DNA of 64,000 nucleotides, taken from the NCBI GenBank assembly GCA_951406725.2, contig OX597818.1:14570001-14634000 (forward strand), given 5' to 3'. Origin of the DNA: Octopus vulgaris. Lineage: Eukaryota. The translations under genes were made by a program, and so were the position numbers. The first letter of the stretch is position 1. Every line of letters begins with the position of its first letter. The notes beneath the pieces were generated by a model that was not told the DNA's origin, did no database searches, and saw only the letters and a program-made list of their open reading frames with translations. This document shows positions 273 to 63,960 of this stretch, piece by piece.

Positions 273-851
273 GCATAAATACATATATATATACATATAC
301 GCACGAATATGGATATATATACATAAATACATACATATATATATACATATATCTATAGACACATATACAAGTGTTTTGTATATGTGTGTGCGTGTATGCA
401 TATATATACAAACAAATACATAAAATACATATATATAATATAATGTGTGTATATATGTATATACGTATATATATATATACATATATATACATATATATAT
501 ATATATGTATATTCATATATATACATATATATGCTTACATATATATATATATACATATATATGCTTACATATATATATATACACATATATATATATATGT
601 ATATATATACATATATATACATATATACATATATATATACATATATATATACATATAAGATACATATATACATATATATATACATATATATATACATATA
701 GTATATATATACATATATATACATATATACATATATATATACATATAAGTATATATATTACATATATATATATACACATATATATATATATATGTATATA
801 TATACATATATATACATATATACATATATATATACATATATATACATATAA

Positions 852-895
<44 letters not shown>
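172..895. repeat. Compound (TA)n/(TACA)n microsatellite
   Basis: Directly visible dinucleotide and tetranucleotide tandem arrays. Confidence 0.97.
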
Positions 896-1370
896 CATAT
901 ATTTGTAACCAGTCAAATAATCCGAAAGTTACTCTTCGGTCTCATCACTTTATTTGGTATTCCTTTCTAGCTAGCAGTGTTGTTTTTATCTCTCAGCGTT
1001 TGAAGTTATTTAGAAATGATCACATCAAATGATATTTTTATATATTTATAACATTATTATATTTGTAGAATGATATTATTTAATTTATATATTTTTTTAA
1101 GTATAACCAATAAAAATTGATGTTCTTCTATAAACACGCATATCAAGTTACGCATAACCGGCAGTGTAAATCAATAATACATAGGTTCACTTAATAAAAG
1201 ATCGCATAGACGATCTTGTGCTACAGTACTGAACACGTATAACAGATACAGAAATAAGAATTTCACATATTCTATATGACTATGGCATATTCATACATGA
1301 AATATGTGTACATTATATACAAACTTTTATAAATACATATATATATATATATATTTACGCACACACACAC

Positions 1371-1416
<46 letters not shown>

Positions 1417-1435
1417 CCTAAATATATATATTTAC

Positions 1436-1513
<78 letters not shown>

Positions 1514-1765
1514 TATATCATATCGTCTATATATACATACGTAGATATATGAACAAATAAACATATGTTCTTGTATGAATTATATAAGTGCTTGCATGTG
1601 TGCGTGTGTGTGTATACACACGATTTTACATTTAGAATTTCTCACAAAATGTAAAAGAGTCGATTTCTAGCTGAGAAACAAAAGATTTTCATTGGAATTT
1701 AGACAAGAAACATGCGGTCTTTTATTTATGCATATGTATATATATGCGTATGTGTAAATATGTAA

Positions 1766-1842
<77 letters not shown>

Positions 1843-1907
1843 CATACATATATATACATATATGTGTGTATATAGAGTGTTAGGTGTGATGTACAGAAAT
1901 TGAATAT

Positions 1908-4790
1908 TGAGAAAAAAGTCGTCAGAATTTTGGAAAAATATCCTTTTATTTCATTATTTTTAGCTCTTTCGTTCATTTCTCGAACTTGTCAAATAAAATT
2001 TTGTGAATGTACAAATCCATTATGCAAACGAAACCACAGCAACAAAAAATACGAGGAGATATACTCCTAATACCTTTGTGCCCTTTAATACCCAGTTATG
2101 TACGGGATGGCATAGATTTCATCCAACGTATCCCTCCCTCTGCACACAAGGTACTATACTCACAAGTTTTTATGTCAACAATCTCTTTACTAATATACCT
2201 CACACTTTAGGCCTAGAAGTAATCAAACACTGTGTAGAGAAACATAGAGAATGGATAAATGAACGCTTCAAGACTGATATCATCACCAACGCCACACGCC
2301 TAGTATTAGACAGATAAAGGACACGGCTATGGGTACGCGTTTTGCGTCCTCATATGCATTTTGGGGCAAATCGAATGAAGATCTAAGTATATTTAACAAT
2401 ATACTGAACGCACTTCACGTATCAATCAAATTCACGACGGAATCCAGTTGCAATGAGCCACTATTCCTGAATATCCACATAAAAATACAGAGTTCCACAG
2501 TCACAACAGACATATTTTACAAAAAACTGACATACAACAATTTTTATATTTCTACTCTTGCTATCCATCACACAGCAAAAGAAACATCCCATTCAGCATG
2601 GCAAGACGCATCTGTGCTATACTGACGGACTCCAAAATACGTGAAATCCGACTCAACGAACTCAAAGGCTCCCTCACAATGCAGAAACGCATAGGATTAA
2701 TTAATGAAGGAATTAAAAAGGTGATGAAACTGAACATCACCCAACTACAGACACCTAAGGGAAAAGTTAATGAAAACACGATTCCGTTCGTTAACACACA
2801 CAGTCCTGGAATAAACAACATCTTTCACGCCATAAAATCGAACTTTCCTATACTCCTACAATGCCTCAAAATGAAAAATCTGCTTGAAAATAAACACCTT
2901 ACAGAATAGCAGACGCCAACCAAAAGATCTTTAAAAAAATACTTCACAAGGGTAAAATTCAAATCAAAAAATTAATCAGAATTCTTAGCAAAAGAATGTG
3001 GAGATAGATGTGGAACATGCAACAACATCAACAACTTCAAATACTTGGAAAGTGGTTCCCACATAAAATTCAACAGCGGATCCCTTTTCAGAATAAATGC
3101 AGGTATGAACTTCAAAACGCAAAATCTCATATACTGTACTAGCATTAAAGACCCGTCGTTGCCGGGTCATAGAGCTAGTGCATATATATATGTGTATATA
3201 TATGTGTACATATTACATGTACATCTACATATATATATACATCTACACATAAAATACAAAATACAAAGTTATATCTTGATATCGCTAGTGATAACAGACA
3301 ATAGTCTTTTCTTTAATTTATTTTTTTATTATCCATCTGGACTATTCCGTTTCTGCACGCTAATTTTATTTTTAATTTATTCCCATCCATGTGAAACCAC
3401 TTATTCAAGTTCAAATCATTGATGCAATTTTATACCAATTGCTATTTTTATTTATGTTATGTTACGATTATATTATACTTTAGTTTGATTTTAATTATTA
3501 CTTACTACATATAATTCAATTGTTATTATTATTTTTATTGTTAAAGTGAAAGTATCTGACATAAAATAGAGAAACGTTTTTGTTTCACTTTTAACACGTA
3601 ATACTGAAATAGTGGAGAAGATATGATATTGCTATGGGCTCGCTCTAGGCAAGATGTTGAAATGAATTTTTTTTTGCCCATGAAACTACATGGACCCTAA
3701 GTAAGGCATGTATAAAATTTGAATGGAATTGGTTGTGTAGTTCTCAAATTTTAGGGAATCGTAGAAGAGAAGATATGATATTGCTGTGGGCTCGCCTTAG
3801 GCAAAAAGTTCAAAATTCTTTTGCCGATGACACTCCCCGGACCCTAAGTAAGGCATGTGTAAAATTTGAATGAAATTGGTTATGTAGTTCTCAGGTTTTA
3901 GGGAAACACACAGACAGACAGACAGACACACATTCTCAGTTTTATATATATATATAAAGATTACCTGCCCAAACTGCAAAGAAAATCACATTGGCGAAAC
4001 AAATAATTCCCTCTGCCAACGTGCAAGGATCCACAGGCAACAAATCCGACAAGAGCACTTAAGCAAGATTTCATTAAGTAAGCATCTGGAAATATGCAAC
4101 GACGGAAAATTCAAAATTTTTCCCTTTTATAAATATGCACGAGACGATCTGTAATACAGAAAAGCAATAGAACTACATTTCATCAAAAAATTCTCTCCAA
4201 AGTTGAATGTTTGGAATGGGAGACAGTACATTTTGTATTCTAAATATAACTCAACGAGAAGAAAAAATAAAGAAGAGGGGAAAAAGAGGAAAGGAGAAGA
4301 GAGAAAAAAGACTTCCAGTGATGACACCGCACCTTTTTTTTTTTTTTTGAAGAGGTCATTATCCTTAAACCCATTCCAATACAATGGTTAATGACTAAAT
4401 AAATAAATGGTGAATAGGAAGGGGGATACACCTTCTCTCTCTCTCTCTCACTCTCTCTATCTCCCTCTACCTATGTCACTATCTGTCTGACTATCTATCT
4501 ATCCACATATCTATCTATCTAGCTAGCTATCTATTTATCTAACTATCAGCCTATCTACCTACATATATTTCTATATATCTATCTCCATTATCATGGAACC
4601 TCACCCCCACCAAAACAAACAATGCTCTCTTCTTCCAAACAAAACCCAAAAAAACATGTTTTATATAAATGAACAAGTTGTTTGTACATTCACAAAATTT
4701 TATTTGACAAGTTCTAGAAAGGATCGAAAGCGCTAAATAATAATGAAGAAATAGAAAGACTTTTTTCTAAAATTTTGACGACTTTTCTCA
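1908..4790 (+). mobile_element. Penelope-like retroelement (decayed RT + GIY-YIG) with inverted terminal segment
   Basis: RT fragments LTSFYVNNLFTNIPH, GTAMGTRFASSYA and IKFTTES. GIY-YIG NLIYC|ITCPNCKENHIGET...ELHFIKKFSPKLN. 1908-2015 is the reverse complement of 4681-4790. Confidence 0.9.
3139..3960 (-). mobile_element. Non-autonomous Helitron inserted in the Penelope GIY-YIG
   Basis: Minus strand starts TC and ends with hairpin gacccggcaacgacgggtc then CTAG. A|T insertion site. Removal restores tac tgt att acc tgc (YCITC). Internal ~155 bp tandem duplication at 3615-3905. Confidence 0.88.
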
Positions 4791-7406: not shown

Positions 7407-9822
7407 CCAGGACTAGCAGTATCGCCCGGCGTTGCTCGGGTTTGTAAGGGAAATAACTATTTAAGCATTTTTAGAGTTACTTCCCTTATAGATGCCAATT
7501 CGGGCTTTCTTAGCCGTTTCTGTTTTGGTGTCTTCAAGCCATGAAGTCGTTGTTCTAAAAGAATGCTGGTCTCCTTGACAACGCATTACGACGTTGATTT
7601 CCTTACACTCCCTTCCCCACAGCTTCACGAGGGAGGGAAGAAGGGGGAGAAGCAAACAGGTGCAGGTGTGACCATGGACGCCAACTCCGCCGCCATCGAC
7701 ACACGAAAAATTATGCATTAAAATGGAATAAAAAATGATGTTAAATTATTTTTAAAATCGTAGACTCATCGTAGACGCCCGCTAATACTCAGACGGGCTC
7801 GATATGAATCACGACTATAAGATACCCGAATTTGGTTAAACTGCACCGCAAAATGTGGGAGTAGTTAGGAATCTAAATCGAAGGGGACAGACACTCACAC
7901 AACTACAGTTTTATATATATAGATATTTCGTATCAGTCCTCAGTTTATTCCTATAACTTAACAGCATAAGTCGCTGTTAAAACAATTATATAAACATTAT
8001 CTTTTATCATATTCTCTCAATACATTCATTAGGTGTTCCTCAAATAGAGTTGTATTTAATTTTCTTTCAACTGTCCTAGCAAAGTTTGGGAACGAAAACG
8101 GTAATATAAGGTACATGAAACACATTATAACACTTTGATATCACGGCGAAAATATTCGTCTGTTTTAATTGCATCAGTAAATTCATAATTGATGCGCTGT
8201 TATGACTGACTGTGACAGATAGAAAACAAGTTTCTTTGTTATATGCGAATTTTATATCACTAGGTTTTCAGTTCACTGATCTTAATAGATATATTTTAAT
8301 CATTACCATACCATCAATTGACTTTTCTTTCATCACGTTTATTTTTGTTTGTCTTCTGATATCCAGCTATAACTTTTTCCAGACTACTCTAATATATTTT
8401 CCCCAACCGCATAAACTTTTTGGCGTTGTTTCCATTCGTTTTGATCCTCTCAAGTTAAGTACAAAAGTGTGTACGTTCCTACCAGGTCTAGTGTTCTGGG
8501 AGCGGTTTTCTATGCGCGTTCATGAATGGTATATGACCCAGCTGCTGCTTCTCGCATAATTGCATAATACGACTGCCGCTATTTATAGTTGTCACGACAG
8601 ATCTACAAATGCATTAAGAAAAGGCTTGTCCTCTTCGAGCAATGTTGATCGCTGCCTGTACCCCTTCTTTTGTTACGGAGCCAAGTCATTGTGCTCTTAA
8701 GTTTATTTATCGCCAATCTTTTTCTCAGCAATTGCATAGGAGCAATGCAATGCGGAAAATCAATTCATCTTGATTCGAATTCCACCGTGCAATTATTCAA
8801 TGTGAAACGCCAGAATTTATGATAGTTTTTCCTTTGCCATTTCATTGCAAAATGTAGCAAGTCCTGAAGTTAGACTATTTCTTTGTCAAAAATAACAGCG
8901 GTTATATAGCAAAACTGGCTGCCATTGCTTCGATTTATTATTATCTGACTAACTAAGTTCTCAGCATCAGACTACACTAAGTAATTTATTTTTATTGCAG
9001 ACACATTTCCGAGTAATATAGATATAGAGTTTCTTTTTCATGTGTATTATATCAAATAATAACGCAGGTACGCTAATTATAATTTTACATTTTAATATAT
9101 TATGATACGTATGGCGTATCTAACTAAATAAAATTAATGCTAATATTCAAAATAAATATATTCATTAAATTAAATTTTGTACTTTTGCGATAAATGTATG
9201 TTATGAATAACAATAGCACTGATTAACTATTAATTAGTTAAAGATGTAACATATTGATTGATTCTATTTAAGATAGCGTGAGATGTTTAATTTGACCAAT
9301 GCCCCAACAACGTGCATTACTAATAACAAATGATGCCTTCAATAAAAATAATTAGAAGTTGTAACTGCAACTTAATTAGTTACGCCTTTCCGTATCGAAA
9401 CGATTCTGAATAATTCTACGTAAAATAAAGATTACACTACGCAGAAAATATAGACTACATAAACGTCAAAATGTTGTAAGAAATTCCGATATCGCATATA
9501 ACAAAGAAAATTGTTTTCTATCTGTCACAGTCAGTCATAACAGCGCATCAATTATGAATTTACTGATGTAATTAAAACAGACGAATATTTTCGCCGTGAT
9601 ATCAAAGTGTTATAATGTGTTTCATGTACCTTATATTACCGTTTTCGTTCCCAAACTTTTGTAGGACAGTTGAAAGAAAATTAAATACAACTCTATTTGA
9701 GGAACACCTAATGAATGTAATGAGAGAATATGATAAAAGATAATGTTTATATAATTGTTTTAACAGCGACTTATGCTGTTAAGTTATAGGAATAAACTGA
9801 GGGCTGATACGAAATATCCTGG
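7407..9822. mobile_element. Non-autonomous TIR DNA transposon with ~330 bp TIRs
   Basis: 7407-7412 plus 7924-8248 is a near-perfect reverse complement of 9492-9822. Flanked by TA. Confidence 0.85.
7413..7923 (-). mobile_element. Non-autonomous Helitron inserted in the left TIR
   Basis: 5' TC, 3' hairpin cccgagcaacgccggg plus CTAG on the minus strand. The A|T site is confirmed by the uninterrupted right TIR (ccagga|tatttcg). Confidence 0.88.
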
Positions 9823-11099
9823 TATAAAATGCCGGAGCAATAATGATTGTTGCATTTATCATCAAATAATTATGTACGCTAAAAAGTATAGTTACGAAGT
9901 TTTCTACATTTATGCAGAGACCCTTTTGACAGTTAATAGATACATAAAAGGAAGGAGCTAACAGAGAAGTTTGTGGGTATATTCTATGATATAATACTAC
10001 ATGTTCAATCCTGTTTAACCTGAAGTCAATGTATCAAGGTTTGCATCAGTCCTTTACGATCCATCCAAATACTTGAAGAGCGAAAAACAACAGATCCAGA
10101 TGTACAAAGTAAATAACATCACATATGAGTGTGTTTATGCGTGTGTGTGTGTGTGTGTGTGTGTGTGCTTACATAAAATGAATGTGTATATATTTCGAGA
10201 TCAAAAGTAAATGATGATTTATTGAAATAAAATATTTTCTTAACTGTATCATACCGTTTCGATTATATCGTTGTTTAGTTTCATGTAAATTCCAATCGAG
10301 AATAAACGTTCGACCCAATATCATATATTACTTCTTTTCCAGGTACAGTGTACTTCACCACACATACATAGAGTTAATGTCGAACTATTTTCTAATAAAA
10401 TCTATGAACTTATTTTTTTCTTTTACACTGAAATAGTTTTAATTGTACATAAATATAAACACAAAGGAACTCTAAAAATTTGTCAAAACTTCAAGGTATT
10501 GTTAAGCTGGAAATTATCATTTTTTTAAAAATTGATTTCTACAATATTATATATAATAAAAAATTATTTTATTTAAATTAAATATAAAACGAACGGATGA
10601 TGGTAAAAGAAATTCATATAATAATTCTAAAAATATATTCATTCTAGTACAAATGATGTGAAGAATTTCAAACTAATAGAGTTTTGAATCGAGATGTTTA
10701 GGCTAGGGGCAAGGCGTATTTTGAGAAAAAAACAAATTTTCTCTTTATTTATGCGAAAAGTAAAACTAAAATGTAACTAAAAAAATATAATTAAAAAATA
10801 TGGTTTGGTATATCTCTTTAACGACAATTCGATACTAACTGATCATTTTTGTAAGTCATCATAAACAATTTTCTCACTATATGTTCATGTATGAATTCAC
10901 AATATTTGTAAGTACAAGTAACTTTAAACTGAGAAATACAGAATAAACTTTAAAAGTTATATTAGTTTTAGATTATTTCAATAAGAACAAAAGAAAAAAG
11001 CTTAAGATCAATTCAGTGAAATTGATTAGTATACTAACTGTATTTCTAAATAGATGAGATTTTTAATTTTAGTTAAGAAAATTTTATGACCTGGAAAGA

Positions 11100-16300: not shown

Positions 16301-16389
16301 CACGTACTGAAGACGTTAAGGTAATTTATTCAAATTAATTTTTAAAAATTGATTTATTTATTTTGCCAGTACAGAAACCGGTCTACGTG
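16301..16389 (+). ncRNA. Type I hammerhead ribozyme motif (intact core)
   Basis: cacgta-CTGAAGA-[60 nt stem II]-GAAAC-CG-GTC-tacgtg. Perfect 6-bp stem I, palindromic minimal stem III. Confidence 0.85.
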
Positions 16390-16588
16390 AGTCCTTATAC
16401 TTAAATGTACGTTGATAGATTTTATTAACCTGATCTGCTTTCTGTTGACTTCTGTATTTATCATCAGTCTAATTTTGGCGATTTAACTAAGAGCTTTGAC
16501 TGTCATTTCCAGCACACAGACATACTTAGTATGTCCTTTGATTAATTTTAATATTATTCCTTCAGATATATCAATATATATATATATA

Positions 16589-18219
16589 CAGTTGCGGCCA
16601 AAATGTTCAGAACGGCATTGTTTTCGTCAGAAAAGTAGATATAAGTTTTTATCAAAGTTGTTTTATATTCTATAATTTTCACAGACAGTAAATACAATAG
16701 TAATTGTTATTGTCTGAGATTTTGGTGTAATTTGAGAGGATAATACAAAAGTTGTGGATGATTTAGTGATTTACTGCAAAGCCCATGGCGGCCAAAATGA
16801 TCAGAATCGTTGAAAAAATAACAAAATAATCAAAAATGACAGAGAATACTGGAATTATTTAATATTTAGTGTGAAGCCCTTTAGCTTCAATCACACTTTG
16901 ACATCTTCGACTGCATGGGGAAATTAAATTTTCAATTTCTTGCTAGGTGATCTTATTCCATTCTTCCTGAAGGGCATTCCATAATTGCTCAGTTGTTTTA
17001 GGATTTTTGGCTTTCGAACGTTCTCCTAGAATATTCCACACATTTTCAATAGGATTGAGATCTGGGCTTTGAGCAGACCAATCCATAATAATAACCTTTT
17101 CAGCCTTGAGGAAGTTCATGACCACCTTAGCCTTGTAACATGGGGCATTGTCCTGCATGAATAATAACCTTTTGGTGGTCGCTTAGTTGAATTTCTCAGC
17201 ACAGGCAAGACATGATCTTTTACAAGTTGTTTATAAACTCCTGCATTTACCTTTCCATGTAATCGCACCAAAGGGCCCACACCATCTCCAGATATCATCC
17301 CCCAAACCATAACACTTCCTCTACCGAATTTAACATTAGTCTTAAGGCATTTAGGCGACAATTTTTCACCTACTTTTCAACGAACGTACCTTTTCCCATC
17401 TGAGCCAAATAACATAAACTTAGATTCATCACTGAAATGCACCGTTTGCCATTTTTCTTGAGACCACAACACATGTTTGGTTGCAAAGGTAAGACGACAC
17501 TTTTTTATTTTTGGAGCTGATCAGTGGCTTCACTGCTGGTGATCTTGCTTGTAGGTTATGTTCAACTAAACGATGAGACAAGTTTTTCGAGATAACGTTT
17601 TCTTTAGTACAATGTTCATTTCCCGAGAAACAGCAGCAGCAGTTTTAAATTTGTCCTTTTTAACCAATTTTACCATAGCATGATCTTCTCTCTTGGTCGT
17701 TTTTCTTGGCCTATCTGTAGCCTTTCTTGCTTCACACGAACCACAATCATCGAAGGCCTTAAGAATACCGTGAACAACACTTTTTGACTTGTTAACAATC
17801 TTTGCAATAGACCCAATACTTAAAATATGCTTCTTTCGGAGCTTAATAATCTGCTGACGAATTGATAACGGAGTAAGTGGCATTATATTATACACTGCAG
17901 ATATTCTTACTAATGTTTAGAAAACGAACCGTCACGTAAACAAATTCAAAACATTAGAGTTCGCCGGTTAAATATATTAAAACATGGAGTAAAAGCAACC
18001 GTTCTGATCATTTTGACCGCCATGCGTTTTACAGTAAATCACTAAATCATCCATAACTTTTGTATTATCCTCTCAAATTACACCAAAATCTCAGACAATA
18101 ACAATTAATATTGTATTTATTGTCTGTTAAAATTATAGAATATAAAACAACCTGGATAAAAGCATATACCTACTTTTCTGGCGAAAACAATGCCGTTCTG
18201 AACATTTTGGCCGCAACTG
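16589..18219 (-). mobile_element. Tc1 transposon (DD34E, IR/DR-type TIRs), full length, frameshifted
   Basis: TA-flanked cagttgcggcc...ggccgcaactg. ~225 bp TIRs with inner and outer direct repeats. FSDESKF, VMVWG, QDNAPC...SPDLNPIE with 34 residues between D and E. Confidence 0.95.
16860..17883 (-). pseudogene. Tc1 transposase pseudogene
   Basis: Split over ORFs 17566-17895, 17116-17361 and 16943-17158 by frameshifts and stops. Confidence 0.92.
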
Positions 18220-18224
18220 TATAT

Positions 18225-18392
18225 AAGCGCAGGAGTAGCTATGTGGTAAGAAGCTTGCTTCCCAAACACATGGTTCCGGATTCAGTCCCACTGCTTGGCA
18301 CCTTGGGCAAGTGTCTTCTACTAATGCCTCGGACCGACCAAAGCAGTGTGAGTTGATTTGGCAGACGGAAACTGAAAGAAACCCGTCGTATA
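18225..18392 (+). mobile_element. tRNA-derived CORE-like SINE (family B), 3' truncated
   Basis: A/B-box-like head plus ggcaccttgggcaagtgtcttc core. Same family as 48003-48408. Confidence 0.8.
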
Positions 18393-23344: not shown

Positions 23345-23488
23345 ATAGGAGAAGGAAAGATCCCGAGAAGGGAAGACAGAGGAAAAAAATCGCCAGCGGT
23401 ACTCAAATAAAGAAGCGCTGTGCTAGACACAAAAAGGGATAAATTCATGAAAGGAATGAAAATCAAAAACGTTTACTATCTCAGTTAA

Positions 23489-23579
23489 TCCTATACCGAC
23501 GGTTTCATCTGTATTAGCAAAAAAATCTGATTTAGCAAAGAAACAGAATTTATCTGTAAGGCCAGAATCATCAGTAGGA
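23489..23579 (-). ncRNA. Type I hammerhead ribozyme motif (intact core, GUA site)
   Basis: tccta-CTGATGA-ttctg...cagat-GAAACC-GTC-GGTA-tagga. Confidence 0.82.
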
Positions 23580-23727
23580 AGCCTTTGTAATCCTAGATGT
23601 ACAGACCGTTAGAAGCACATGTAAATCGATCTGTATGCCCTAACTTTTCAGACCAGTGCGCAGGGTATACAGATCGTTAGATTTGCATGTGCTTCTAACG
23701 GTCTGTACATCTAGGATTACAAAGGCT

Positions 23728-23819
23728 TCCTACTGATTATTCTGGCCTAAGCAGATAAATTCTGTTTCTTTGCTAAATCAGATTTTTTTGCTAAAACAGA
23801 TGAAACTGTCAGTATAGGA
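23728..23819 (+). ncRNA. Hammerhead copy with mutated core (CTGATTA)
   Basis: tccta-CTGATTA-...-GAAACTGTCAGTA-tagga. Confidence 0.65.
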
Positions 23820-24021
23820 TTAACTGAGATAGTAAACGTTTTTGATTTTCATTCCTTTCCTGAATTTATCCCTTTTTGTGTGTCTAGCACAGCGCTTCTT
23901 TATTTGGATGCCTTTTAATGTATTTCTATATGAATAATATATAGTCTAATGACTAATTCGTCTTTTATGCTGGGTCACTGGTAATAATAATTTATTTTTT
24001 ATTACCCTATTTACTATGTTC

Positions 24022-28719: not shown

Positions 28720-30700
28720 CAAAGATTGGTCCAGGACATGTCTAACTTAATAGCACCACCTGATAGGATTATTCGAATCCTGTTTAAGTCAAGTTTTGTT
28801 TAAGTCAAGTTTTGTTTAAGTCAAGTTTTGTTCAAGTAGTGAGTTCTTGTTGGGTGAGTTGTATCCAATTATGGGTGGCTTATCTGGTATTCTTTGAAGG
28901 AATCTATCCAGACTCCGTTTAAAGTTGATGGGATCCTTTTCCTCTTTGATCTCCCTCGGGACAATGTTAAATAGGGCAGGGCCTGTTGTGGAAAAGAAAT
29001 TATGTTGCAGTGTACATGTATGTTGTGATCTTGAATTGGGCAGGAGACGTATGGCCCGTGGTCCCAGTCTTGGATTAACCTTGAAGCTAATGTTATTGTC
29101 CTTTGGGCAAAGTTGGCGGTATATTCTCCACATCGTACAAATGATGTACCGCTCACGGCGACGCTCGAGGGAGTAAAGTTTCAAGGCTTTAAGGCGATCC
29201 CAATAATCGAGAGCAGCCATGCCTTCAATTCGTTTAGTGAGTGCCCTCTGGAGTGACTCAATCCTGGAGATGTTTTGTCTTGTATGGGGAGACCACAGTG
29301 GGAAGCAGTATTCAAGGTGTGGCCGTACAAAGGAGGAGATAAGTGGTATGATGACACCTTGTTCTCTGGACCGGAAAGTTCTTAAGATCCAGGAACTCAT
29401 CCTACGAGCTATATCGACATTCTTTTTGATGTGTGCACTCCAACTGAGATCGTCATAAACAATTACACCCAGGTCTCTGATATTGTTAGAGGCTGTGAGC
29501 GGTTCCCCTGAAGGAAGAGAGTATGGCTGTTTTAGTGAGGAATTTCTTCCAAAATGCATCAGCTCAAATTTTCCCTCATTCAGTTGCATTTTGTTTCTGT
29601 CTGCCCATTGACTCACAGCATATAGATCAGACTGGAGTTGAGTTCGGTCTGCTTCTTCATTGACGATTTGTGGAGCTTAGTGTCATCAGCAAATATTTTC
29701 ACTTTGCAGTAATGTACGACACTGGAAAGGTCGTTTATGTAAATTATGAAGAGTAGCGGACCCAAAACAGTCCCCTGGGGAACACCGCTGGTGACTTTTG
29801 CTGGGCTTGAGTGGACTCCATCAACTACAACATGTTGTGTTCTATTCGCCAGGAAATACTTAATCCAGTGTAGAACTTTTCCACGGATTCCAACATTTGC
29901 CAATTTTGAGAGTAGGATATTATGGTCTACCCTGTCGAACGCTTTACTGAAGTCAAGATATATTACGTCAGAGTTCGAACCTGTTCCCAAGGCTTTGAGT
30001 ACATATTCAATGTGGTGTAAGAGCTGTGTTAGACAGTCCCTGCCACAGCGAAAGCCATGCTGATTTGCATTTAGGAGTTTGTGGGTCTCCAGGAAGTCAG
30101 CTATCCTTGATCTTAACACTCTTTCAAACACTTTAATGATGTGGGAAGTGAGTGAGATTGGGCGATAGTTGACTGCGAGGGATCTGTTTCCCTGTTTGAA
30201 AACCGGGATGACCGACTGGGATAGAAACTGCAAGTTGGTGTCTACATTCCTTCAGGAGACTAGCGGGGAATCTATCAGGGCCTACAGCAGAGTAGTATTT
30301 GACCTCATTTATTGCTGCTACGATGTCAGTGGCAGTGAAGGTTATGTCTGAGATTTTATGTTGGGAGTCAACTTCGTTCGTTTCTCTTACGTCAATATCA
30401 GTGGGAACACTAAAGACAGAGCAGTATTGTTTTTGCAGTATTTCTGCCATTTCTTTAGCATCGTGTTGGGGAATGCCGTTATCATCAATCAATGGCCCAA
30501 TGGGTGAGACAGTGGTTCTATGCTTTTTTGCATAAGAATAGAACACTTTTGGGTTCTGTTTGATGTTTTTGATTACCCACTGTTCCTCCACAGCTCTTTG
30601 ATTTTCAATAGAGGTTTTCATGTTGGTCTGCAGATGAAGTTTTTCCAGCTCTAGTCTTTTCATTGTTGTTGGATGTGGATGTTGTGTGTGGGAATATTTT
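28720..30700 (-). mobile_element. CR1/L2-type LINE, 5'-truncated, RT split by frameshifts
   Basis: NYRPISLTSH, NQHGFR, YLDFSKAFDRVDH, SGVPQGTVLGPLLF, FADDTK, LYSLERRRERY (ORFs 30133-30663, 29613-30233, 28816-29616). Confidence 0.95.
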
Positions 30701-31374
30701 AATTCTGATAGAAAACCATATGGCTGGATCTAGAGCTATGATGACGCTTCACTTTCCATATCTTTAGCATGTGGTGATCCACGATATTTAACATTTTGAA
30801 TTTATTCATAACACCCATTTTTGCAGATATGCTTGGGGGTGCGGCCAGTTCCCGGGACTCCAGATACATATTCATCACTAGCTTCAAAGTTTTTTTTTTC
30901 TTTTGCGAAACAAAGAAAATTTCTATAAAGTAATGTGTATTTGCCAATAGAGTAGAATTTGTTTTTTCACTTATTTATTCTTTAGAAAGGTTTCTCTTCA
31001 GGACTTCAGACAGCTGAAATTTTCTATGGATATTCTGTGTGCGAATATAATCTGAATAGAAGCAAAAACGAAAATAGTTTTTAAAAGATATTGAAGACCA
31101 TAAGAACTGATAGCAGCTATGCAAATTCATTTCGTTTAATCCCACCAAAGACATTACTAAGCCGGGAAGTTTATCCATACCTCTATTATTACTACGTCTG
31201 GGGCAGATAAGCTGACCGTTTTGCTAATCATAAGTTTTTAAAATGAGTTCAAGAATTAAAGATTAAGAATTTCGTTACCATAAAATTACTTTTCTTCAGA
31301 ATTAAGTGTCACTTTTATAAGATCCTGGAGGCAAAGAAGCGCCACAAATGATTCATAATAAAAATAATAATAAT

Positions 31375-41790: not shown

Positions 41791-42870
41791 CACGTTGATT
41801 GAATGACATCATCAGTTTTTAAGTTTCATTGAATTACGATGAAAAGAAATAACAAATGAGATAGCTAAGTTTAGCAAAGAAAGTCAAACCTTCAAGCATA
41901 ATTTTAGCAAACACAATGCAATATGTGAAAGAATTATTTTAGTGATTAACTGGCACCGAAATTTCGCTGGTATTTCAAAATTGTTGCACGAAAGTTACCA
42001 GCATGTATGCTCGTTTCAAACAGATATATTCTCAGCCACCTATTGTAGCCTTTAGACGGAATAAAAATATGAGATCTATTGACCTCTGTTTCTGACTCAA
42101 AGAAAAGGATCATTGGCGCATCTGCACGCTGTACCTTGAAAGACAGCCGCAAGAGAGGTAAACCTTGTTCAATATGCAACAAGAGTCAAATGAATTGCAC
42201 CAGGAATCATAACAGAAATGTTATGATTTATACAGAAGGTGGAATATGCAGAGATTCCCATTTGATGTACGCGGCAGAATGCACGAAACACAACTTGATT
42301 TATGTTGGTTTACAACAGAACAATTAAACAAAAGATTTAATGGGCACAGATTGGACGTCAGGCACATTAACAGTAGTTCGACAGCACTTGCTGAACACAT
42401 TATTTCAAATAGCTGCAATTTTGAAAAAGACTTGAAAGTGCTTATTCTCAGAAAATATTCTGAATCTATTTCCCTTTCAATACTCAAAATGCATGAGGAG
42501 AAATATGTTTACGTGTTATTAACATCACGCCCTAGAGGAATGAATAAAATGACAGGAGAATATCAAATTTACGCAAAACTGTTTGACTGAATATTCTTAT
42601 TTTTCTTTTCCTTTTTTCTTTGCTTTTTCCTGATTTTTTCTGTCTTTTTCTTTTCACCTGTTATAAAATTGAAACTTAAAAACTGATGATGCCATTCCAT
42701 CAACGTGTGGACTCTAGTTGCTCCCGTTCGTACTTTAGATCTGAATTTTATGATTTTGAACTTTAATCCCTTTTTACTTTGAACTCGACAAAGACAGGCT
42801 TGCTATCGAAATATCATTCAACGAATAAAATATCTATTGCAATTGCACCGCACTCTTCGTCGTGTCTATA
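41789..42870 (+). mobile_element. Penelope 3' fragment (GIY-YIG) with 40 bp inverted terminus
   Basis: MYAAECTKHNLIYVG/FTTEQLNKRFNGHR...ALAEH...RGMN. 41789-41828 is the reverse complement of 42670-42709. Confidence 0.85.
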
Positions 42871-51680: not shown

Positions 51681-51849
51681 ATTTTTTCTATATATGCATA
51701 TGCTGATATATAACCTACGCTGGACTCCTCATTCGCATAATCACCGAACCTGGAGCTTAACTATAGACTGTCCATAGCATTACTTGACACCTTTGGGTCT
51801 TCTTGACACCATTACCTCTCATAACCTATATATATATATAATTTATCAA

Positions 51850-52470
51850 TTATAATAAAGGGTAAAATTAATTAATTAACTCGTAATTAATAATTCCACC
51901 AAGTAAAATTCGGCATGAAAAAGGACCATTTTTCGGTAAACTTAAACAATATTTTATAATTACGAGTATGACTATAATTAGGGTTCAGCAAAGATTTGCT
52001 TTACCACATACCGAAGTTTAGGAATAGCAGGCAAAGAACCTTAGCTATTTCTTCTACTATAAGAAGAGACTCCCGGACAAAGCAAAATATTAGAAATAAC
52101 CCACGCAGACAGAGAGGAAAAATAACGAAATTCCCTCGGTATTTGATTACCTGTGGACGCGTTTCGGAATTAGATCGGTATGAAGAATATAAAAATCATA
52201 CTTCACCCAAACATTTTCCTCTTCAGCACAGGATTCCCCGATATTAAATTTGAGAGCACTGGAAAAATTGAACATACCTATCCAATTCAAAACAGTATCA
52301 GACAGATCATATTCAACGTCCAGTACCGGCGAGTTTTGTCCGGGAGTCTCTTCTTATAGTAGAAGAAATAGCTAAGGTTCTTTGGCTGCTATTTCTAAAC
52401 TTCGATATGTGGTAAAGCAAATCTTTACTGAACCCTAATTATAATTATACTCGTAATTATAAAATATTGT
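51850..52470. mobile_element. ORF-less fold-back element (135 bp arms) with a hammerhead in the loop
   Basis: 51946-52081 is the reverse complement of 52335-52470. Flanked by (TA)n. Confidence 0.85.
52150..52232 (-). ncRNA. Type I hammerhead ribozyme motif (intact core)
   Basis: cctgtg-CTGAAGA-ggaa...ttcc-GAAAC-GC-GTC-cacagg. Confidence 0.9.
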
Positions 52471-52481
52471 ATATATATATA

Positions 52482-53576: not shown

Positions 53577-53627
53577 CCAGTACTGAGGAGTGGCAGAAAT
53601 AGACCGAAACCAGGACTGGTCTGCTGG
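53577..53627 (+). ncRNA. Type I hammerhead ribozyme motif (intact core, weak stem II)
   Basis: ccagta-CTGAGGA-gtggcagaaatagacc-GAAACCAG-GA-CTGGTC-tgctgg. Confidence 0.75.
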
Positions 53628-54082
53628 TTCTGTCCCTAAGAGATGGTAGGGGTTAGCTCCCCTGTTCGCAATTTTATCGGATGCAGCTGTGTATCGTTAA
53701 CCAGCTAGTGGAGATGTCTCTTATGGTTAAAATATCGCAGATGAGTCTGCCCTGTTAAAGTAGCTACGAATATTACTTGCCAGTACAACTACTACGTTAA
53801 TCTCTTAGAAAGATTTTAAAACTTGCATTTTTGCTTGTTATATATATATATATATACAACATAAACTTGCAGTTTTGCTTGTTGTATATATATATATATA
53901 CATATATACATGCGTATAATAGGGATAACCACTAAGCGGACATCCAATATGCTAGAAGAAATAGTTAAATTCCATACCACTATTAGGGATAAAACTTCGA
54001 AGGGAAAGAAAAATAAAAACATTTACCATCTTATTACCCTTGATATTATTAACATATATATATATATACACACACATACACG

Positions 54083-56189: not shown

Positions 56190-57940
56190 GTCAAGCAAAT
56201 TGTATTGATAATACAATTTCGAACTGAAAATCAGTCAATGTTGAAGAACCCCGTTGTAAATAATATTCATTGTTTCAATTTTTATTGGTGTTGAAATGAA
56301 TAAATTTTTGCTGCTTCCATCTGGCGAGCAAGCAGTGGGAGTAGCATGTAGTAGAGAGGTCAAGTGCAACTACCTTGAGTGAGTAACCCTGAATTTTTTT
56401 AATTGAAATACCAAAACTTAGTTTGACTGGAAACTGCAGCGTCATAATTTCTAATGGAACATATGTAGGTACAAGAGGAATTTTTGAAATAAAGACATTT
56501 TCTCCTTTGTTATGATTGTTGCTTGTTGGACATGGGACTTCATGGAAGTAACAATTAAGTGAATTCCATTACACAGGTGAGGTGGTCAAGATTCCCAAAC
56601 AACATAATGGGAGCACCCAGTTTTAGTGTCATGTTATGCAGTGCCATCCTAATAGGTTCAAGTGTGTTCAGAAATTCAACAGTGTACTGAACAACCTGAT
56701 TTTGATCGACTGTTGTCATTTGATCGAAAAGTCATTTCTAATGTATCTATTAACTTTTGAAGAAGTTCATGATTGAGTTCATCAACCATTTCATTAGTTG
56801 GAGCTAGTATAGCTCTTTCACATAGTCAGTTTACATCAGTGTAATTGACATATAAATTATGAAGTACTTTATCCATAATATCCCTTAAAGAAAGTATCAT
56901 TTAATCGCATGTAATTTCATGTAGTTGAAGTCTTGATTTGAATGATAATATCCTATTATCAATCTTAAGAATCTCGTATGATCACCTTGTAGAAGTACTC
57001 TGATGTTGCCTGTAAAATGAAGTTCTTTTACATTTCTTCGAAGGTGCGATTTTTTGAAGCAGGCATTAACCTCATGAGCTTTTGATCCTTTGGGGATAAC
57101 TAACAATGTTTGACGAAAATCTCCTCCAACAAGAACTGATTTTTATCTTCTTGGAGGGTACGGTCAAGTAACTTTGGAGCTCCACAATGTGACAGTGAGC
57201 TCTTCCCAAGCAATGAGGCAAGTTTGTTAGAGAACTGTTGCCCTGGCACAGTTTTTGGAAATGTTGCACATTTTCGATTCTTTCCTTGCAAGGTTTAGAG
57301 GGAGCTTGAACATGGAAGGAACAATTCTCCCCCCATTGAGGAGAGTAACTACAATACCAGAGGAGGCAACACTGGAAGAAGGTTAAATTTTCTTTATTTC
57401 CATTTGGGATTGCAGGTAAAAGTGACAAAAAGAGCTGTTTTTTTTGTATGTCCTGACATATGTCATAGCATCTTGTGTTCGTGCAAATATCGAGGACAAC
57501 TTGTGAATAATAATGGGAGGATTATAAGTTGCCCCATGATTTTATATCACTATCTGTCCTCAGAGCATCTTGGAGAGGGACTTTGGTTTTATTGTTACGA
57601 ATGTAGAGGAGATACTGACTCTCAACTATAGCATACATATCAACCAGGTATAGCTGAAATAGATCAGGACACATGTGTAATTGATTTGATTGTTCTGGTC
57701 TTAACATCAGTTGATAAGAATAGAAGTCATTTGACGACACCTTTTTGTTTATAATTGGCTCTCCTGTTGCAGGTTCAATCTGTGGAATATTGAAATGATA
57801 CCCATCTTGTCCATTCCACAAAATAAAAGGATACTGGAGAGCATCATAAGAGGGATGAGTCTCTGAAACATGTTTAAGGTTGTTATCTCGAGCAAGAATG
57901 AGAATATCACGATTTTCATGGGGATCACCTACTATAAGGA
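56190..57940 (-). pseudogene. Helitron Rep/PIF1 helicase remnant
   Basis: DALQYPFILWNGQDGYH...FYSYQLMLR...FQLYLVDMYA, DFRQTLLVIPKG..EVNAC.K.S.L, RAILAPT, LKLGAPIMLL. Confidence 0.88.
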
Positions 57941-59908
57941 TGGTTAATCCATTAGATGTAAGCTCGTTAAAATGGCGTAAAATGCCCTTTATTATAGTTT
58001 ACTATAGACGTAGCGAACGGGAAACACACGCTCACAAACATAGAGACACTGATAGAATTGAAAACAGCAAAACGTGTACACACGGAGTTCAAGCGAAGCG
58101 TACTGTTGTCAGTATAGACGCAAAACACACTTTCTGTAACGTAGTTATGCTATAAAACTTTTTTTTGTGAATATTTCCAAAAGAAATATTCCAGCGTCGG
58201 AAAGTCACCAATTTAGTAAAAATTACTATGCGTCACCAATGTAACAAAGTACAGAAAGTCAGCATTTATGTGGAACATGTACTAAATGTTATTAAATGTT
58301 ATTAAATTCAGGATTAAACGTAACGGTGAAGTCAAGCCCGAAGAAAATTCAATTTTTCTTATAAAAATAATTTATTATTTTACAATTTTTAAACGAGCGC
58401 TGTACAAAGTGTATACGAAGGAATATGTTGTTGTTGAAAACATTAAGTAATTTAAAAGATTTGCTGAAGGATATATGTAGCAAAACATAAATTAATTTGA
58501 CATTACTATATATTCTAACTGTGTAAGGTTATAGGCTGTAGAATAAATACTGACTAATACTGACCAACGCAAAAATGTTGCGCGGCATTGAATACTAACA
58601 GTGTTAAAGCAGCGTAGTAGGAATACGACAAGGACTCTAGGACTGTTAAAACAGCATTATCTTCAAACTGGTTATAAGGACTGGAATAACATTTCTGTAA
58701 TTATATTGAAAGAGCCGCTAAGGCTTTCTACTTCGCCAAGTTTCCGAATTTGTTATAATAACCAGAATAACATTTTTTTTCAGATATATTTGCGAGTGTT
58801 TTGAGTGCTGTTAAATGAGCCAAATCTTCACGCTGGTTATAAAAACCAGACAAATATTCCAGCACATAAGTAGTGATAATCGTTAATCCTGTTTAAAACG
58901 CAACTCTCCATGAGGAAAAGGAAAACCCAAACAGTGATACTTCAAAGTGAATGCTGATGTTCGTTCAACATCCAGGCCGTAACTAAATTAAACTCTTTCA
59001 AAATCGATGCGTTTCACTGTTGGCGGTACGATTACATACATATAGTAAGACAGACACTCACAGACATACATTCAAGCAGACCTCAAGCCTATCGCTTTCT
59101 CTTTGTGTGTCTGTTTCTGTATTTAGATATGTGTGTGAGTGAGTGAGTGAGTGAGTGAGTGAGTGAGTGAGTGCGTGTATGTGTGTGTGAGTGTGTGTCA
59201 GTCGTCACACCTTCACATACACTCACACATATACTTCTTGATCATCGGCCTACCAAAGGTAACGATCGCACAAACACACACAAATTGACAGACACATACA
59301 CAGTCGGACAGAACATGTGACGTCGTCATCATCGTGGTATAAAATGTTATTTACGGTAGTTAACTTATAGAAAGATCATAATGTCAAACTTTTACAATGC
59401 AAATATTTAAACGAAAATAAAGTTTATTTGGTAGCCGAAAGATTACTGAATCTTTTGATACCCCATACGTCAAAATCGACAACTAAGTTTTCGAATGTAT
59501 AAGGAACATATGCACACACATATACACAAACTCTGCTTTATTTATATAGAAATACTAGTAATGCATCCCGGCGTTACCCGGAGGTTATGATCTACAAGCA
59601 CATTGTATTGTTTGCTCTTTTCTTATGGGAAGAATTGGCACAGCTGATATATAGTTAATGGAATAATGGAAGCTATTGTTTGTTTAATAGTGAAAGGCGA
59701 GGGTGAAATTTGCATGAAAGTGCATTCTGTTCTTAAGAAGGATCAGAGACTATGTAATGTTTCATCGTATACGAGGAGATTAATGCGATTTTGTCCAGAA
59801 ATTACGTTTTCGATATTTTAATTTTCCCCTTATCCCCACCGCAAATTTGTAACTTTTTTCGAATTTTTTGTCATCTACATAGAAAAGTACAGAGATTACG
59901 AATCTGGG

Positions 59909-59978
<70 letters not shown>

Positions 59979-60176
59979 ATGATAAAATAGGGTAATAATA
60001 AATTATTATTACCAGTGGCCTAGCACAAAAAACGAATTAGTGATTAGACTATATATAATTCATATAGAAATACAATAAGAGGCTTCCAAATAGGAAAGCG
60101 TTGTGCTAGAACACAAAAAAAAAGGATAAATTCCCGAAAGGAATGAAAATTAAAAACGTTTACCATCTCAACTATT

Positions 60177-60246
60177 TCCCAGACCGACGGTTTCTAACTA
60201 TTTCCAGCAAAAAAGTATTTGCTGAAGGCCAGTTTCTTCAGTGGGA
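60177..60246 (-). ncRNA. Type I hammerhead ribozyme motif (intact core, GUC site)
   Basis: tccca-CTGAAGA-aactg...tagtta-GAAACC-GTC-GGTC-tggga. Confidence 0.85.
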
Positions 60247-60379
60247 CAGCCTTTAGAATCCAGACATACATCCTCTCTGTGGCCGGGTAAAATCTGCGTC
60301 TGCGCAGTGGTTTGAAAAGTTAGGATTTACAAACCGTTAGGCCTACATGTGGATCTAGCGGTCTGGATTCTAAAGGCTG

Positions 60380-60449
60380 TCCCACTGAAGAAACTGGCCT
60401 CCAGCAAATACGTTTTTGTTGGAAATAGTTAGAAACCGTCAATCTGGGA
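60380..60449 (+). ncRNA. Hammerhead copy with broken stem III
   Basis: tccca-CTGAAGA-...-GAAACCGTCAATC-tggga. Confidence 0.6.
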
Positions 60450-60558
60450 AATAGTTGAGATGGTAAAAGTTTTTAATTTTCATTTCTTTCGTGAATTTAT
60501 CCTTTTTTGTGTGTTCTGGCGCAACGCTTTCCTATTTGGAAGCCTCTTATTGTATTTA

Positions 60559-60627
<69 letters not shown>

Positions 60628-61713
60628 ATTTTTCTTAAAGAAATACTCAATGCCCCTTCCTCCACCTCACCCACCCATCACCTACCAGCTTTCAAAAAGC
60701 TAAAATCTCCCAATCTTTCATTTTTAGCTGATGTTATCCTCATGTGTAGAATTCTACTGAAATAGTAGACTTAAAAAATACCTGACCACCACCAGAAAAC
60801 CAGACATGCTAGAAACAACAAGCAAATAATATTATTTCTGAAGAAACTTCCCCGTTTACCAAAAAGTTAAAATTGAAACATTGGAAATGTGTAGCTTTTT
60901 GAAAGTGATGAAGCGATGGGTAAAATTCTTAACGATTCGTACTCTCTATTTTTTCTCCATGTATTACCAAGTGGAAAAATTTTTTAAATGTAAAAAATGA
61001 ATTTGGTGTGGAGAGGGAGAAAATTAAATATTGAGAACGTATTTTGTGGGTGAAATCATAATCTCCTGTGTCGCAAACATAGGAATCGGAAGAAATTTAG
61101 GAAAAATATAAGGTGGGGACGGAAATGCCACCTCAGACATGCTCGAAAAAAGAAATAAAGGACAGGATTTCTGGGAAAACTTCATCTTAAGTTTATATCG
61201 AAGATCAGATTTAAAATATGCTCATCACAAACACAAATTAAACAATAGAAAAAGATCCTTTCACTTGGATTTGAGCTGTAAATTTATGCCTACACACTAC
61301 AAGAAATAATGTAATTCAGATGTTTTACCTGGAGTGTGAGTATTTGTGTCAAAGGAAGTTATTTTATGGCATTCTTTCGTTTGAAGAAGCATAGTTGTCA
61401 ACTCAACATATAAGGGATCATATGATTGTTCGTTAATTTCCGTAAAATTCTATTAATTTCTGTATGCTTTGAAGACAGCAGAAATTGAAAGAGAGGATAC
61501 AGTGAAAAGGCGACATTTGCTTTGAAGTGAAAGGAGAAAGTAAAAGAGAGAAAACGTGTAAGATATACGTGTATATGAAATGGACGCGTATGTGTATGTT
61601 AGAGAGAGAGAAAGAAAGGAAGAAAAGAAGAGAGAAACAAACAAAGAGAGAGTGAGTGAAGGTGTGTGTTGTGATGCATGAATATTTTGACATTTATGTA
61701 TAAGTGACACTCG

Positions 61714-63435: not shown

Positions 63436-63960
63436 AAAAAATTAGTGTGCATTTTAACGCAAGTGAGGCGACCCTTGACAGGCAACCTTACATGCTAGTC
63501 AAAACGACCAAAACCACATTTAAGTGCAATTTCGAAGGGAATGAAAAATAAAAACTTTTACCTTGTTTTTTTTTCTTTTACAGCCATACCTAAATTTCGA
63601 ACTCTCATTAGCAAATAAAATAATTTGCTAAGCGAAGTTCTCATTAGTGGCTACGCCAAAACATTAACATATAATTTAGAGACAGAATAACACTATCTCA
63701 ACATTATATATTATAATTTATCAAATTCACCACGCAAGCGCGGTTTCAATCGGCAGCACAAGTAAAAGAAGGCCGAAATTAATTTCTGAAATTGCTAAAA
63801 TCATATTTATACAATATAGGATAGCGAAATTTTAGAAATTTCGCTACCAGTGCCCTAGCATGTATAAAAAGTCAATAGACAATATATTTTCCATATAAAA
63901 TTAGTGTACATTTAAACACAAGTGAGGCGACCCTTAACAGGCAACCTTACATACTAGAAG
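63436..63960 (-). mobile_element. ~459 nt monomer plus ~60 bp direct repeat with a degenerate hammerhead (63581-63653)
   Basis: attagtgt...gaggcgacccttracaggcaaccttacat at 63441 and 63900. tagcca-CTAATGA-gaactt...gagttc-GAAATTTAGGTA-tggctg. Confidence 0.75.

Follow-up and report, generated by a model that had tools for sequence, protein, structure and literature searches.

A short protein-less repeat of the octopus genome carries a type I hammerhead ribozyme with signs of selection on its fold and is probably copied by a Penelope-like enzyme

We analyzed a window of 64,000 nucleotides from the Octopus vulgaris genome, which is 2.8 Gb in size and rich in microsatellites. At 59975-60557, the window contains two 5′-truncated copies of a non-coding unit of about 430 nt, lying back to back in a (TA)n tract. 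The long arm (59975-60270, minus strand) covers approximately unit positions 143 to 430, as judged from the sequence and from blastn against a natural unit. It ends at 3′ end site 1, after which (TA)n follows. The inverted arm (60269-60557, plus strand) is truncated to about unit position 48, ends at 3′ end site 2 and is also followed by (TA)n. The two arms overlap by 2 nt (CA, 60269-60270) and are mismatched at 13 of 202 aligned positions. The target reads as (TA)n on the left (59904-59974) and as (TA)n(GA)n on the right (60558-60625). A preliminary description had set the left end at 59985, which we correct to approximately 59975. The output of the repeat finder was dominated by microsatellites and was used for arm coordinates only. 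Directly upstream of site 1, a self-match revealed an AT-rich hairpin (59991-60013, minus strand) that is kept across the subfamily majorities described below; it is a candidate protein-binding site or start signal for reverse transcription.

The long arm contains an intact type I hammerhead (60177-60246, minus strand) with stem I TCCCA/TGGGA, a long interrupted stem II and a palindromic helix III, ACCGTCGGT. The full core is present (C3 U4 G5 A6 N7 G8 A9, G12 A13 A14, A15.1-U16.1, and H17), with CTGAAGA at 60241-60235 and GAAA at 60194-60191, and the cut is predicted 3′ of C60182. An extra A (60195), which did not figure in the preliminary description, lies between 11.1 and G12. The second copy of the hammerhead, in the inverted arm (60380-60449, plus strand), has its helix III broken by two private changes (ACCGTCAAT). 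As the two hammerheads are on opposite strands, one transcript of the locus carries one sense copy only; the insertion is probably a dead end. A second CTGAAGAAACT at 60838 was dismissed as a chance occurrence, as it lacks a matching 3′ half. An Rfam scan returned no hammerhead family in the best 150 of 220 matches.

Pfam analysis of 52 open reading frames (ORFs) of the window yielded transposon domains only and no host gene. Helitron fragments (Helitron_like_N and PIF1) lie at 56900-57998 (minus strand), and a LINE reverse transcriptase remnant lies at 28819-30729 (minus strand). Long inverted repeats are present at 7911-9829 and 16578-18225, with arms of 338 and 230 nt, respectively; the latter flank fragments of the DDE and helix-turn-helix domains of a Tc1/mariner-like transposase. 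The window also holds other hammerheads. The one at 52150-52232 (minus strand) has CTGAAGA, a long interrupted stem II and a palindromic ACGCGT helix III; it belongs to a fold-back of a different family (51830-52480), which shares the same design and has a similar 3′ end before (TA)n. Another type I hammerhead, at 16301-16389 (plus strand), has a long stem II and a palindromic ACCGGT helix III and is unrelated in sequence to the 60-kb family. A compact hammerhead-like motif at 53577-53627 (plus strand) reads CTGAGGA, with a short stem II and a helix III of 4 to 5 bp; its lowest-energy fold is not a hammerhead (z +0.3).

Four genome searches yielded 120 loci of the 60-kb family, with 201 unique segments. 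The units are joined head to tail at a spacing of 419 to 440 nt and have a GC content of 34 to 36%. In all four copies longer than the unit, the longest ATG-initiated ORF encodes 34 to 58 amino acids (aa), and no reverse transcriptase (RT) or GIY-YIG ORF adjoined the copies among the matches listed for the first 60 loci. Segments end at two fixed places adjoining (TA)n: site 1 is the unit end, just after the AT-rich hairpin, and site 2 lies about 90 nt upstream of it. Among 98 loci examined, both a site-1 and a site-2 arm were found next to (TA)n in 32, in opposite orientation in every case, while 50 had site 1 only, 4 had site 2 only, and 12 had neither. The inversion point differs from copy to copy. 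The unit junction is crossed in 28 of 138 (TA)-flanked arms, and two complete consecutive hammerheads occur in 2 of the 138 (L018 and L226), a property of the family and not of the 60-kb locus. Most copies span 0.3 to 1.5 units, and long arrays are rare.

By exact 5′-half pattern, the family has at least 275 hammerhead copies. The pattern is degenerate and 19 nt long, and its 275 exact matches in the genome compare with 0 for the reversed control, in support of the earlier statement that this is not a chance motif. The exact pattern of subfamily A, to which the 60-kb copy belongs, had 51 matches, and the extra-A 3′ half of subfamilies A and B had 117. A first-look estimate of 1,600 to 2,400 copies was discarded, having been inflated by related families. 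Related subfamilies reach unit lengths of 447 to 475 nt; such longer relatives, with helix III ACCATGGT, are found at L189 to L193, L195 and L197, and their insert matches loose contig ends in sequencing runs guessed to be RNA. Within the window, three short segments (53978-54032, 63533-63651, and 63823-63903) show diverged similarity to the 3′ part of the unit and are likely fragments of related families. Elsewhere in the genome, a tandem unit of about 640 nt with a long-stem-II hammerhead (L153, G000:C28:25287000-25293800) shares TGCTAG-CCACTGG, the hairpin and a poly-T 3′ motif with the 60-kb family.

A second insertion of the family, of subfamily C1, lies at 23404-24015 (plus strand), with its long arm at 23662-24015 (plus strand) and its inverted arm at 23404-23663 (minus strand). 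The homology that had been proposed for the two elements was borne out by an alignment of 59911-60538 to 24085-23404 (72% with gaps; E value, 7e-101); the best local block between the long arms is identical at 196 of 225 positions. Their opposite orientation applies to the long arms, while both of the intact hammerheads that had been compared (60177-60246 and 23489-23579) are on the minus strand. The intact 23-kb hammerhead has CTGATGA and a GUA cut site; its stem II starts with U.U at the base, and the extra A is missing. A motif scan reproduced the reported stem I difference, TCCCA/TGGGA at 60 kb versus TCCTA/TAGGA at 23 kb, and N7 (A versus T) and H17 (C versus A) differ as described. The stem II comparison was one base out of register: instead of tctg/caga, the bases homologous to AACT/AGTT at 60 kb are TTCT/AGAT at 23 kb. 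In register, there is true compensation at 10.2:11.2 (A-U versus U-A), and 10.1:11.1 is A-U at 60 kb versus a U.U mismatch at 23 kb. The invariant positions are kept in the two arms that were compared but not in their partners: the other-arm hammerhead of the 23-kb insertion (23728-23819, plus strand) has G8 changed to T (CTGATTA, 23733), and helix III is broken in the copy at 60.4 kb.

We then considered the conservation of the core in an alignment of one hammerhead-covering arm per locus from 94 loci. The tree was split into five subfamilies (A, 26 copies; B, 30; C1, 4; C2, 6; D, 28), with identities of 76 to 92% between and 92 to 95% within subfamilies. Over the 94 copies, no change at the 11 core bases fell on an internal branch and 9 fell on terminal branches, while the 244 flank columns showed 150 internal and 501 terminal changes. 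When 11 flank columns were resampled, 0 internal changes occurred at a P value of 0.004; here the copies had been picked by similarity, and the null models only partly remove relatedness. The 9 core deviations are spread over 1,028 cells, and none is common to several copies. A subfamily-majority test of the core alone (0 of 11 versus 48 of 244 columns; P = 0.096) and a Fisher test of internal versus terminal changes in core versus flank (P = 0.22) were not significant. The reason is conservation within the 3′ flank, where 20 of 181 columns differ, compared to 28 of 63 in the 5′ flank. Singleton changes amount to 0.9% in the core versus 1.7% in the flanks (P = 0.045). Their presence in the core indicates that inserted copies do decay there.

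The stems were parsed in 91 of the 94 copies, with L026, L102 and L113 left out for deletions. Helices I, II and III surround the core and the molecule ends in helix I, which is the type I layout. Most stem pairs are kept in 87 to 90 of the 91 copies; 2.5:1.5 is kept in 80 and 10.1:11.1 in 63. As 10.5:11.5 is paired in only 32 copies, the proximal part of stem II comprises 4 bp. Pair 2.1:1.1 switches from A-U to G-C, 2.2:1.2 is C-G versus U-A, 10.2:11.2 occurs as A-U, C-G and U-A, and 15.3:16.3 goes from C-G to U-A. Double Watson-Crick changes fall on single internal branches at all four of these pairs, twice at 10.2:11.2. In the flank control, such a change on one branch was seen in 37 of 10,476 complementary column pairs. 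Where both flank columns are variable, 21 of 293 pairs stay Watson-Crick throughout, so that the probability of four out of four is 2.6e-5. Shared states that break a pair also occur, namely, C.A at 2.5:1.5 in C2, U.U at 10.1:11.1, and those of a few two-copy clades. The pair that closes stem II varies within subfamily D between U.U (14 copies), G.U (8) and G-C (5), with L045, L050, L055, L065 and L089 as examples; this series would fit a stepwise route to the canonical G10.1-C11.1.

An out-of-sample set was assembled from the first 100 listed of the 275 matches by picking 20 loci for new or rare 5′ halves. Nineteen belonged to the family and contributed 20 hammerheads; L188, with no family match, was dropped. 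At each of 2.1:1.1, 2.2:1.2 and 10.2:11.2, the 3′ half, which had played no part in the choice of loci, pairs in 19 of the 20 (shuffle P ≤ 3.5e-4, with relatedness ignored). The set also includes a new stem combination, CCCG/CGGG. Stem I of L183 reads as fully paired by eye, and the automatic parse is one base off. Together, the conserved core and the compensatory stem changes support selection on the hammerhead fold in the source elements, as the preliminary description had proposed, and in the family alignment core and stems do not mutate as freely as the flanks. The comparative signal concerns these source elements, not the 60-kb copy, and the fold-back shape is an insertion product, not a selected structure.

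Helix III with its loop occurs in six shared forms, ACCGTCGGT, ACCGTTCGGT, ACTGCAGT, ACCGCGGT, ACTGATCAGT and ACCATGGT, all of which are palindromes. Taking three independent states, the probability that the palindrome is retained by chance is about 0.016. The innermost complementary pair (G-C or A-U) encloses 0 to 2 bases, too few for a hairpin, and the calculated energies are -0.9 to +2.9 kcal/mol for the hairpin versus -11.1 to -14.1 kcal/mol for the self-duplex. In the predicted fold of a single copy of the 60-kb hammerhead, stems I and II form (z -2.2), the former with a bulged extension and the latter with an internal loop, while the core CUGA would be paired with the 3′ half of helix III, giving an inactive shape. 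Dimeric action via a palindromic helix III is a published model, set out in the available text of PMC4209133 and PMC7229834. A helix III that stays palindromic through six variants, with pairs too tight for a hairpin, points to dimeric cleavage, and the hammerheads of this family likely cut as pairs.

All 53 parsed copies of subfamilies A and B carry the extra A between 11.1 and G12 (one has G instead), as do 19 of the 20 out-of-sample copies and the 117 exact genome matches in A/B context. The extra base is absent from subfamilies C and D, where 10.1:11.1 is U.U, G.U or G-C. Since the extra base separates the 10.1-11.1 pair from G12, the 60-kb hammerhead is a core variant. Among the subfamilies with the extra A, 10.2:11.2 switched between A-U and C-G, which argues that the constraint on stem II continued in its presence. 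Neither the extra A nor the U.U closure conforms to the consensus, and either could make cutting less efficient. In the portions of the literature available to us, the known unpaired base of Penelope hammerheads sits between A9 and 10.1 (PMC4209133), and Perreault et al. reported in 2011 the core insertions A6a, U13a and 2a/2b as well as U10.1-U11.1 (PMC3088659). No insertion before G12 was found in the literature searched, which took in the available text of PMC4209133, PMC7229834, PMC3088659 and the preprint 10.64898/2026.07.22.740005. We tentatively propose, at a little under even odds, that this is a working natural core variant with a bulged A before G12. The variant would have persisted while subfamilies repeatedly replaced one another, disappearing only with a change of the closing pair to U.U, G.U or G-C, and its obligate-dimer cutting would be recorded as covariation at helix III pairs that are impossible within one hairpin.

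Taken as a whole, the data favor the reading that the fold-back is an insertion of a protein-less repeat of about 430 nt, bearing a type I hammerhead with a conserved core and covarying stems, and that this repeat is a non-LTR retrozyme for which a Penelope-like RT/endonuclease provides the copying in trans; we put the probability of this reading at roughly 80%. According to our model, a source locus with at least two hammerheads would be transcribed, two hammerheads would pair via the palindrome and then cut, and the resulting RNA of unit length may then be circularized. A Penelope-like enzyme would cut a (TA)n tract, and reverse transcription would proceed from both DNA ends, starting at two internal sites about 90 nt apart. 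Copying would pass a restored or uncut hammerhead and would sometimes extend beyond one full unit, and the two cDNAs would be joined 5′ to 5′, giving the fold-back. Daughter subfamilies would have come only from sources with a working ribozyme, so that shared changes would be compensatory, while inserted copies would gain private, often disruptive changes.

The ends of the copies bear on the template. The 5′ ends show no accumulation at the predicted cut: 4 of 140 lie within 3 nt of it, compared to 2.4 expected, and none of 30 fresh copies starts exactly there. Copying therefore runs through the site, so that the template would be a circle or an uncut tandem. Of the site-1 arms that cross the unit junction, 21 of 22 stop before the upstream cut (post hoc P of about 0.006), and 2 of 6 such site-2 arms pass it; the arms that stop there weakly suggest a template limited by cut RNA. 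Six sequencing runs guessed to be RNA gave contigs that contain the unit wholly or in large part and extend across its junction. We did not count them as evidence of expression, since tandem DNA would give the same joint and the RNA origin is guessed, and part of the contig depth comes from related families that share the 3′ part. An intron reading of the sequence past the cut (donor-like GGTAAA about 17 nt downstream, CTAAT, and TGCTAG) was rejected, as the acceptor AG is changed or deleted in C1 and C2 and no matching joint was listed in eight sequencing runs.

The genome holds a possible source of the enzyme, with an intact ORF family encoding RT plus GIY-YIG (775 aa). One young Penelope-like family with many near-identical copies, represented by L141 (G000:C1:37062300-37069000, 475-4382), ends in (TA)n and has two overlapping ORFs, one of 557 aa with no Pfam match and then, in another frame, the 775-aa RT plus GIY-YIG ORF. 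No canonical CTGANGA hammerhead was found in its 3′ repeat. The window itself contains two decayed fragments of Penelope-like ORFs: 2278-3419 (plus strand) has intact genomic relatives with RT and GIY-YIG, and 42213-42587 (plus strand) has many decayed relatives. Against 60 loci of two Penelope-like families, the unit gave no nhmmer match and one 26-nt blast match, which fell in a flank.

Other readings of the locus deserve consideration. Linear, uncut tandem transcripts might be copied with no circle, the hammerhead fold being kept for binding by the Penelope protein or for a slow, protein-assisted cutting that insertion does not need. Passage of copying through the cut site with no pile-up of ends fits this, as does the inactive predicted fold of the single copy, and for a Penelope-like element of anole the available text of PMC11167929 reports that hammerhead mutants had no effect on insertion in vitro and that cutting needed protein. 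However, all 11 catalytic positions are retained, with variation at N7 and H17, as is characteristic of catalysis, and the stopping of site-1 arms before the upstream cut weighs, as a weak post hoc hint, in the same direction. We therefore regard the uncut-transcript account as unlikely.

Another possibility is that an autonomous Penelope-like element gave rise to the copies as truncated end repeats (pLTRs) and that they do not form an independent non-coding family. ORF-bearing relatives were searched for in two protein families only, and as far as the text of PMC4209133 available to us goes, most Penelope-like hammerheads are single truncated motifs, some of them on opposite strands 100 to 700 bp apart. 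Against this, the next unit starts directly past the 3′ end site, with no ORF, in 28 arms of subfamilies A, B and D, and direct unit-to-unit continuation is seen in further subfamilies too; an origin as pLTRs is accordingly highly improbable. The preliminary description had called the element a fold-back, and both copies of the family in the window do resemble long inverted repeats, as a foldback or MITE-like DNA transposon would, with the hammerhead as a passenger or a chance motif. Yet arm lengths are unequal, the arms stop at two different positions in the unit, no fixed inversion point is shared by the copies, only a site-1 arm was seen at 50 of 98 loci, and the stems covary. We consider a DNA transposon of this kind refuted by the arm ends, the variable inversion points and the stem covariation, and next to no weight is left for it.

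The retrozyme reading can be set against known systems, as these are described in the available portions of the cited papers. At the family level, the element shows in its genomic sequence the features of non-LTR retrozymes that were tested. Like the metazoan examples (Cervera and de la Pena 2020, PMC7229834; Li, Clavereau and Pollet 2026, 10.64898/2026.07.22.740005), it has a non-coding unit in the range of 150 to 450 bp with low GC, a type I hammerhead with a weak helix III, and head-to-tail repeats, and it co-exists with Penelope-like elements. A U.U at the base of helix II is likewise known from the axolotl HHR_Amex2 (PMC7229834 / 10.64898/2026.07.22.740005). Unlike typical retrozymes, the octopus family mostly comprises 0.3 to 1.5 units instead of long arrays, its inverted arms are frequent, and it has a long interrupted stem II and, in most subfamilies, the extra A before G12. 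A target-site duplication, when present in retrozymes, exceeds 4 bp; the octopus insertions end in (TA)n, which would mask any duplication.

Penelope-like elements are known for partial tandems, inverted 5′-truncated copies, a tail and a bias for (TA)n (PMC8557442), with the tail lying between two internal start sites of reverse transcription (PMC11167929). The octopus family resembles them in its partial tandems, its inverted 5′-truncated copy, its two putative internal start sites and its AT-rich or (TA)n targets (PMC8557442; PMC11167929), and it resembles the hammerheads of their pLTRs in the dimer-suited palindromic helix III and in having subfamilies with compensatory changes (PMC4209133). 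It differs in that the unit has no RT/GIY-YIG ORF and that its 3′ ends are about 90 nt apart, compared to 30 to 40 nt. In stem II of the octopus hammerhead, it is the 3′ side that has the unpaired base (11.1/G12), in contrast to the position between A9 and 10.1, and the G10.1-C11.1 pair is found in only 5 of 28 subfamily D copies. By analogy, the element works like a non-autonomous Penelope passenger. The satellite hammerhead pDo500 of Dolichopoda cave crickets (PMC2837043) likewise combines a conserved core with compensatory changes at 2.2:1.2 and in stem II, in a repeat of about 500 bp. For pDo500, satellite arrays were compared between species, whereas the octopus copies are dispersed insertions with subfamilies within one genome, and their covariation extends inside the helix III palindrome. 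The natural core variants of Perreault et al. (PMC3088659) also include core insertions and U10.1-U11.1, but the available text of that paper names no insertion between 11.1 and G12.

In the literature on the host's animal group and ribozymes, we found no description of such an element. The kind of element and the style of argument have already been published, and the general point is unsurprising. The octopus family adds a clean within-genome case of an animal repeat hammerhead under selection in the elements that make copies. The way in which its copies are inserted links a hammerhead repeat that encodes no protein to Penelope-type copying, a connection that has been argued in print from co-occurrence and phylogeny. 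Specific to this family are the extra A beside G12 and the six natural palindromes, which provide a ready panel for dimer-dependent cleavage. If the proposal of a working core variant with a bulged A is true, the subfamily series would represent a natural mutational walk of an obligate-dimer ribozyme.
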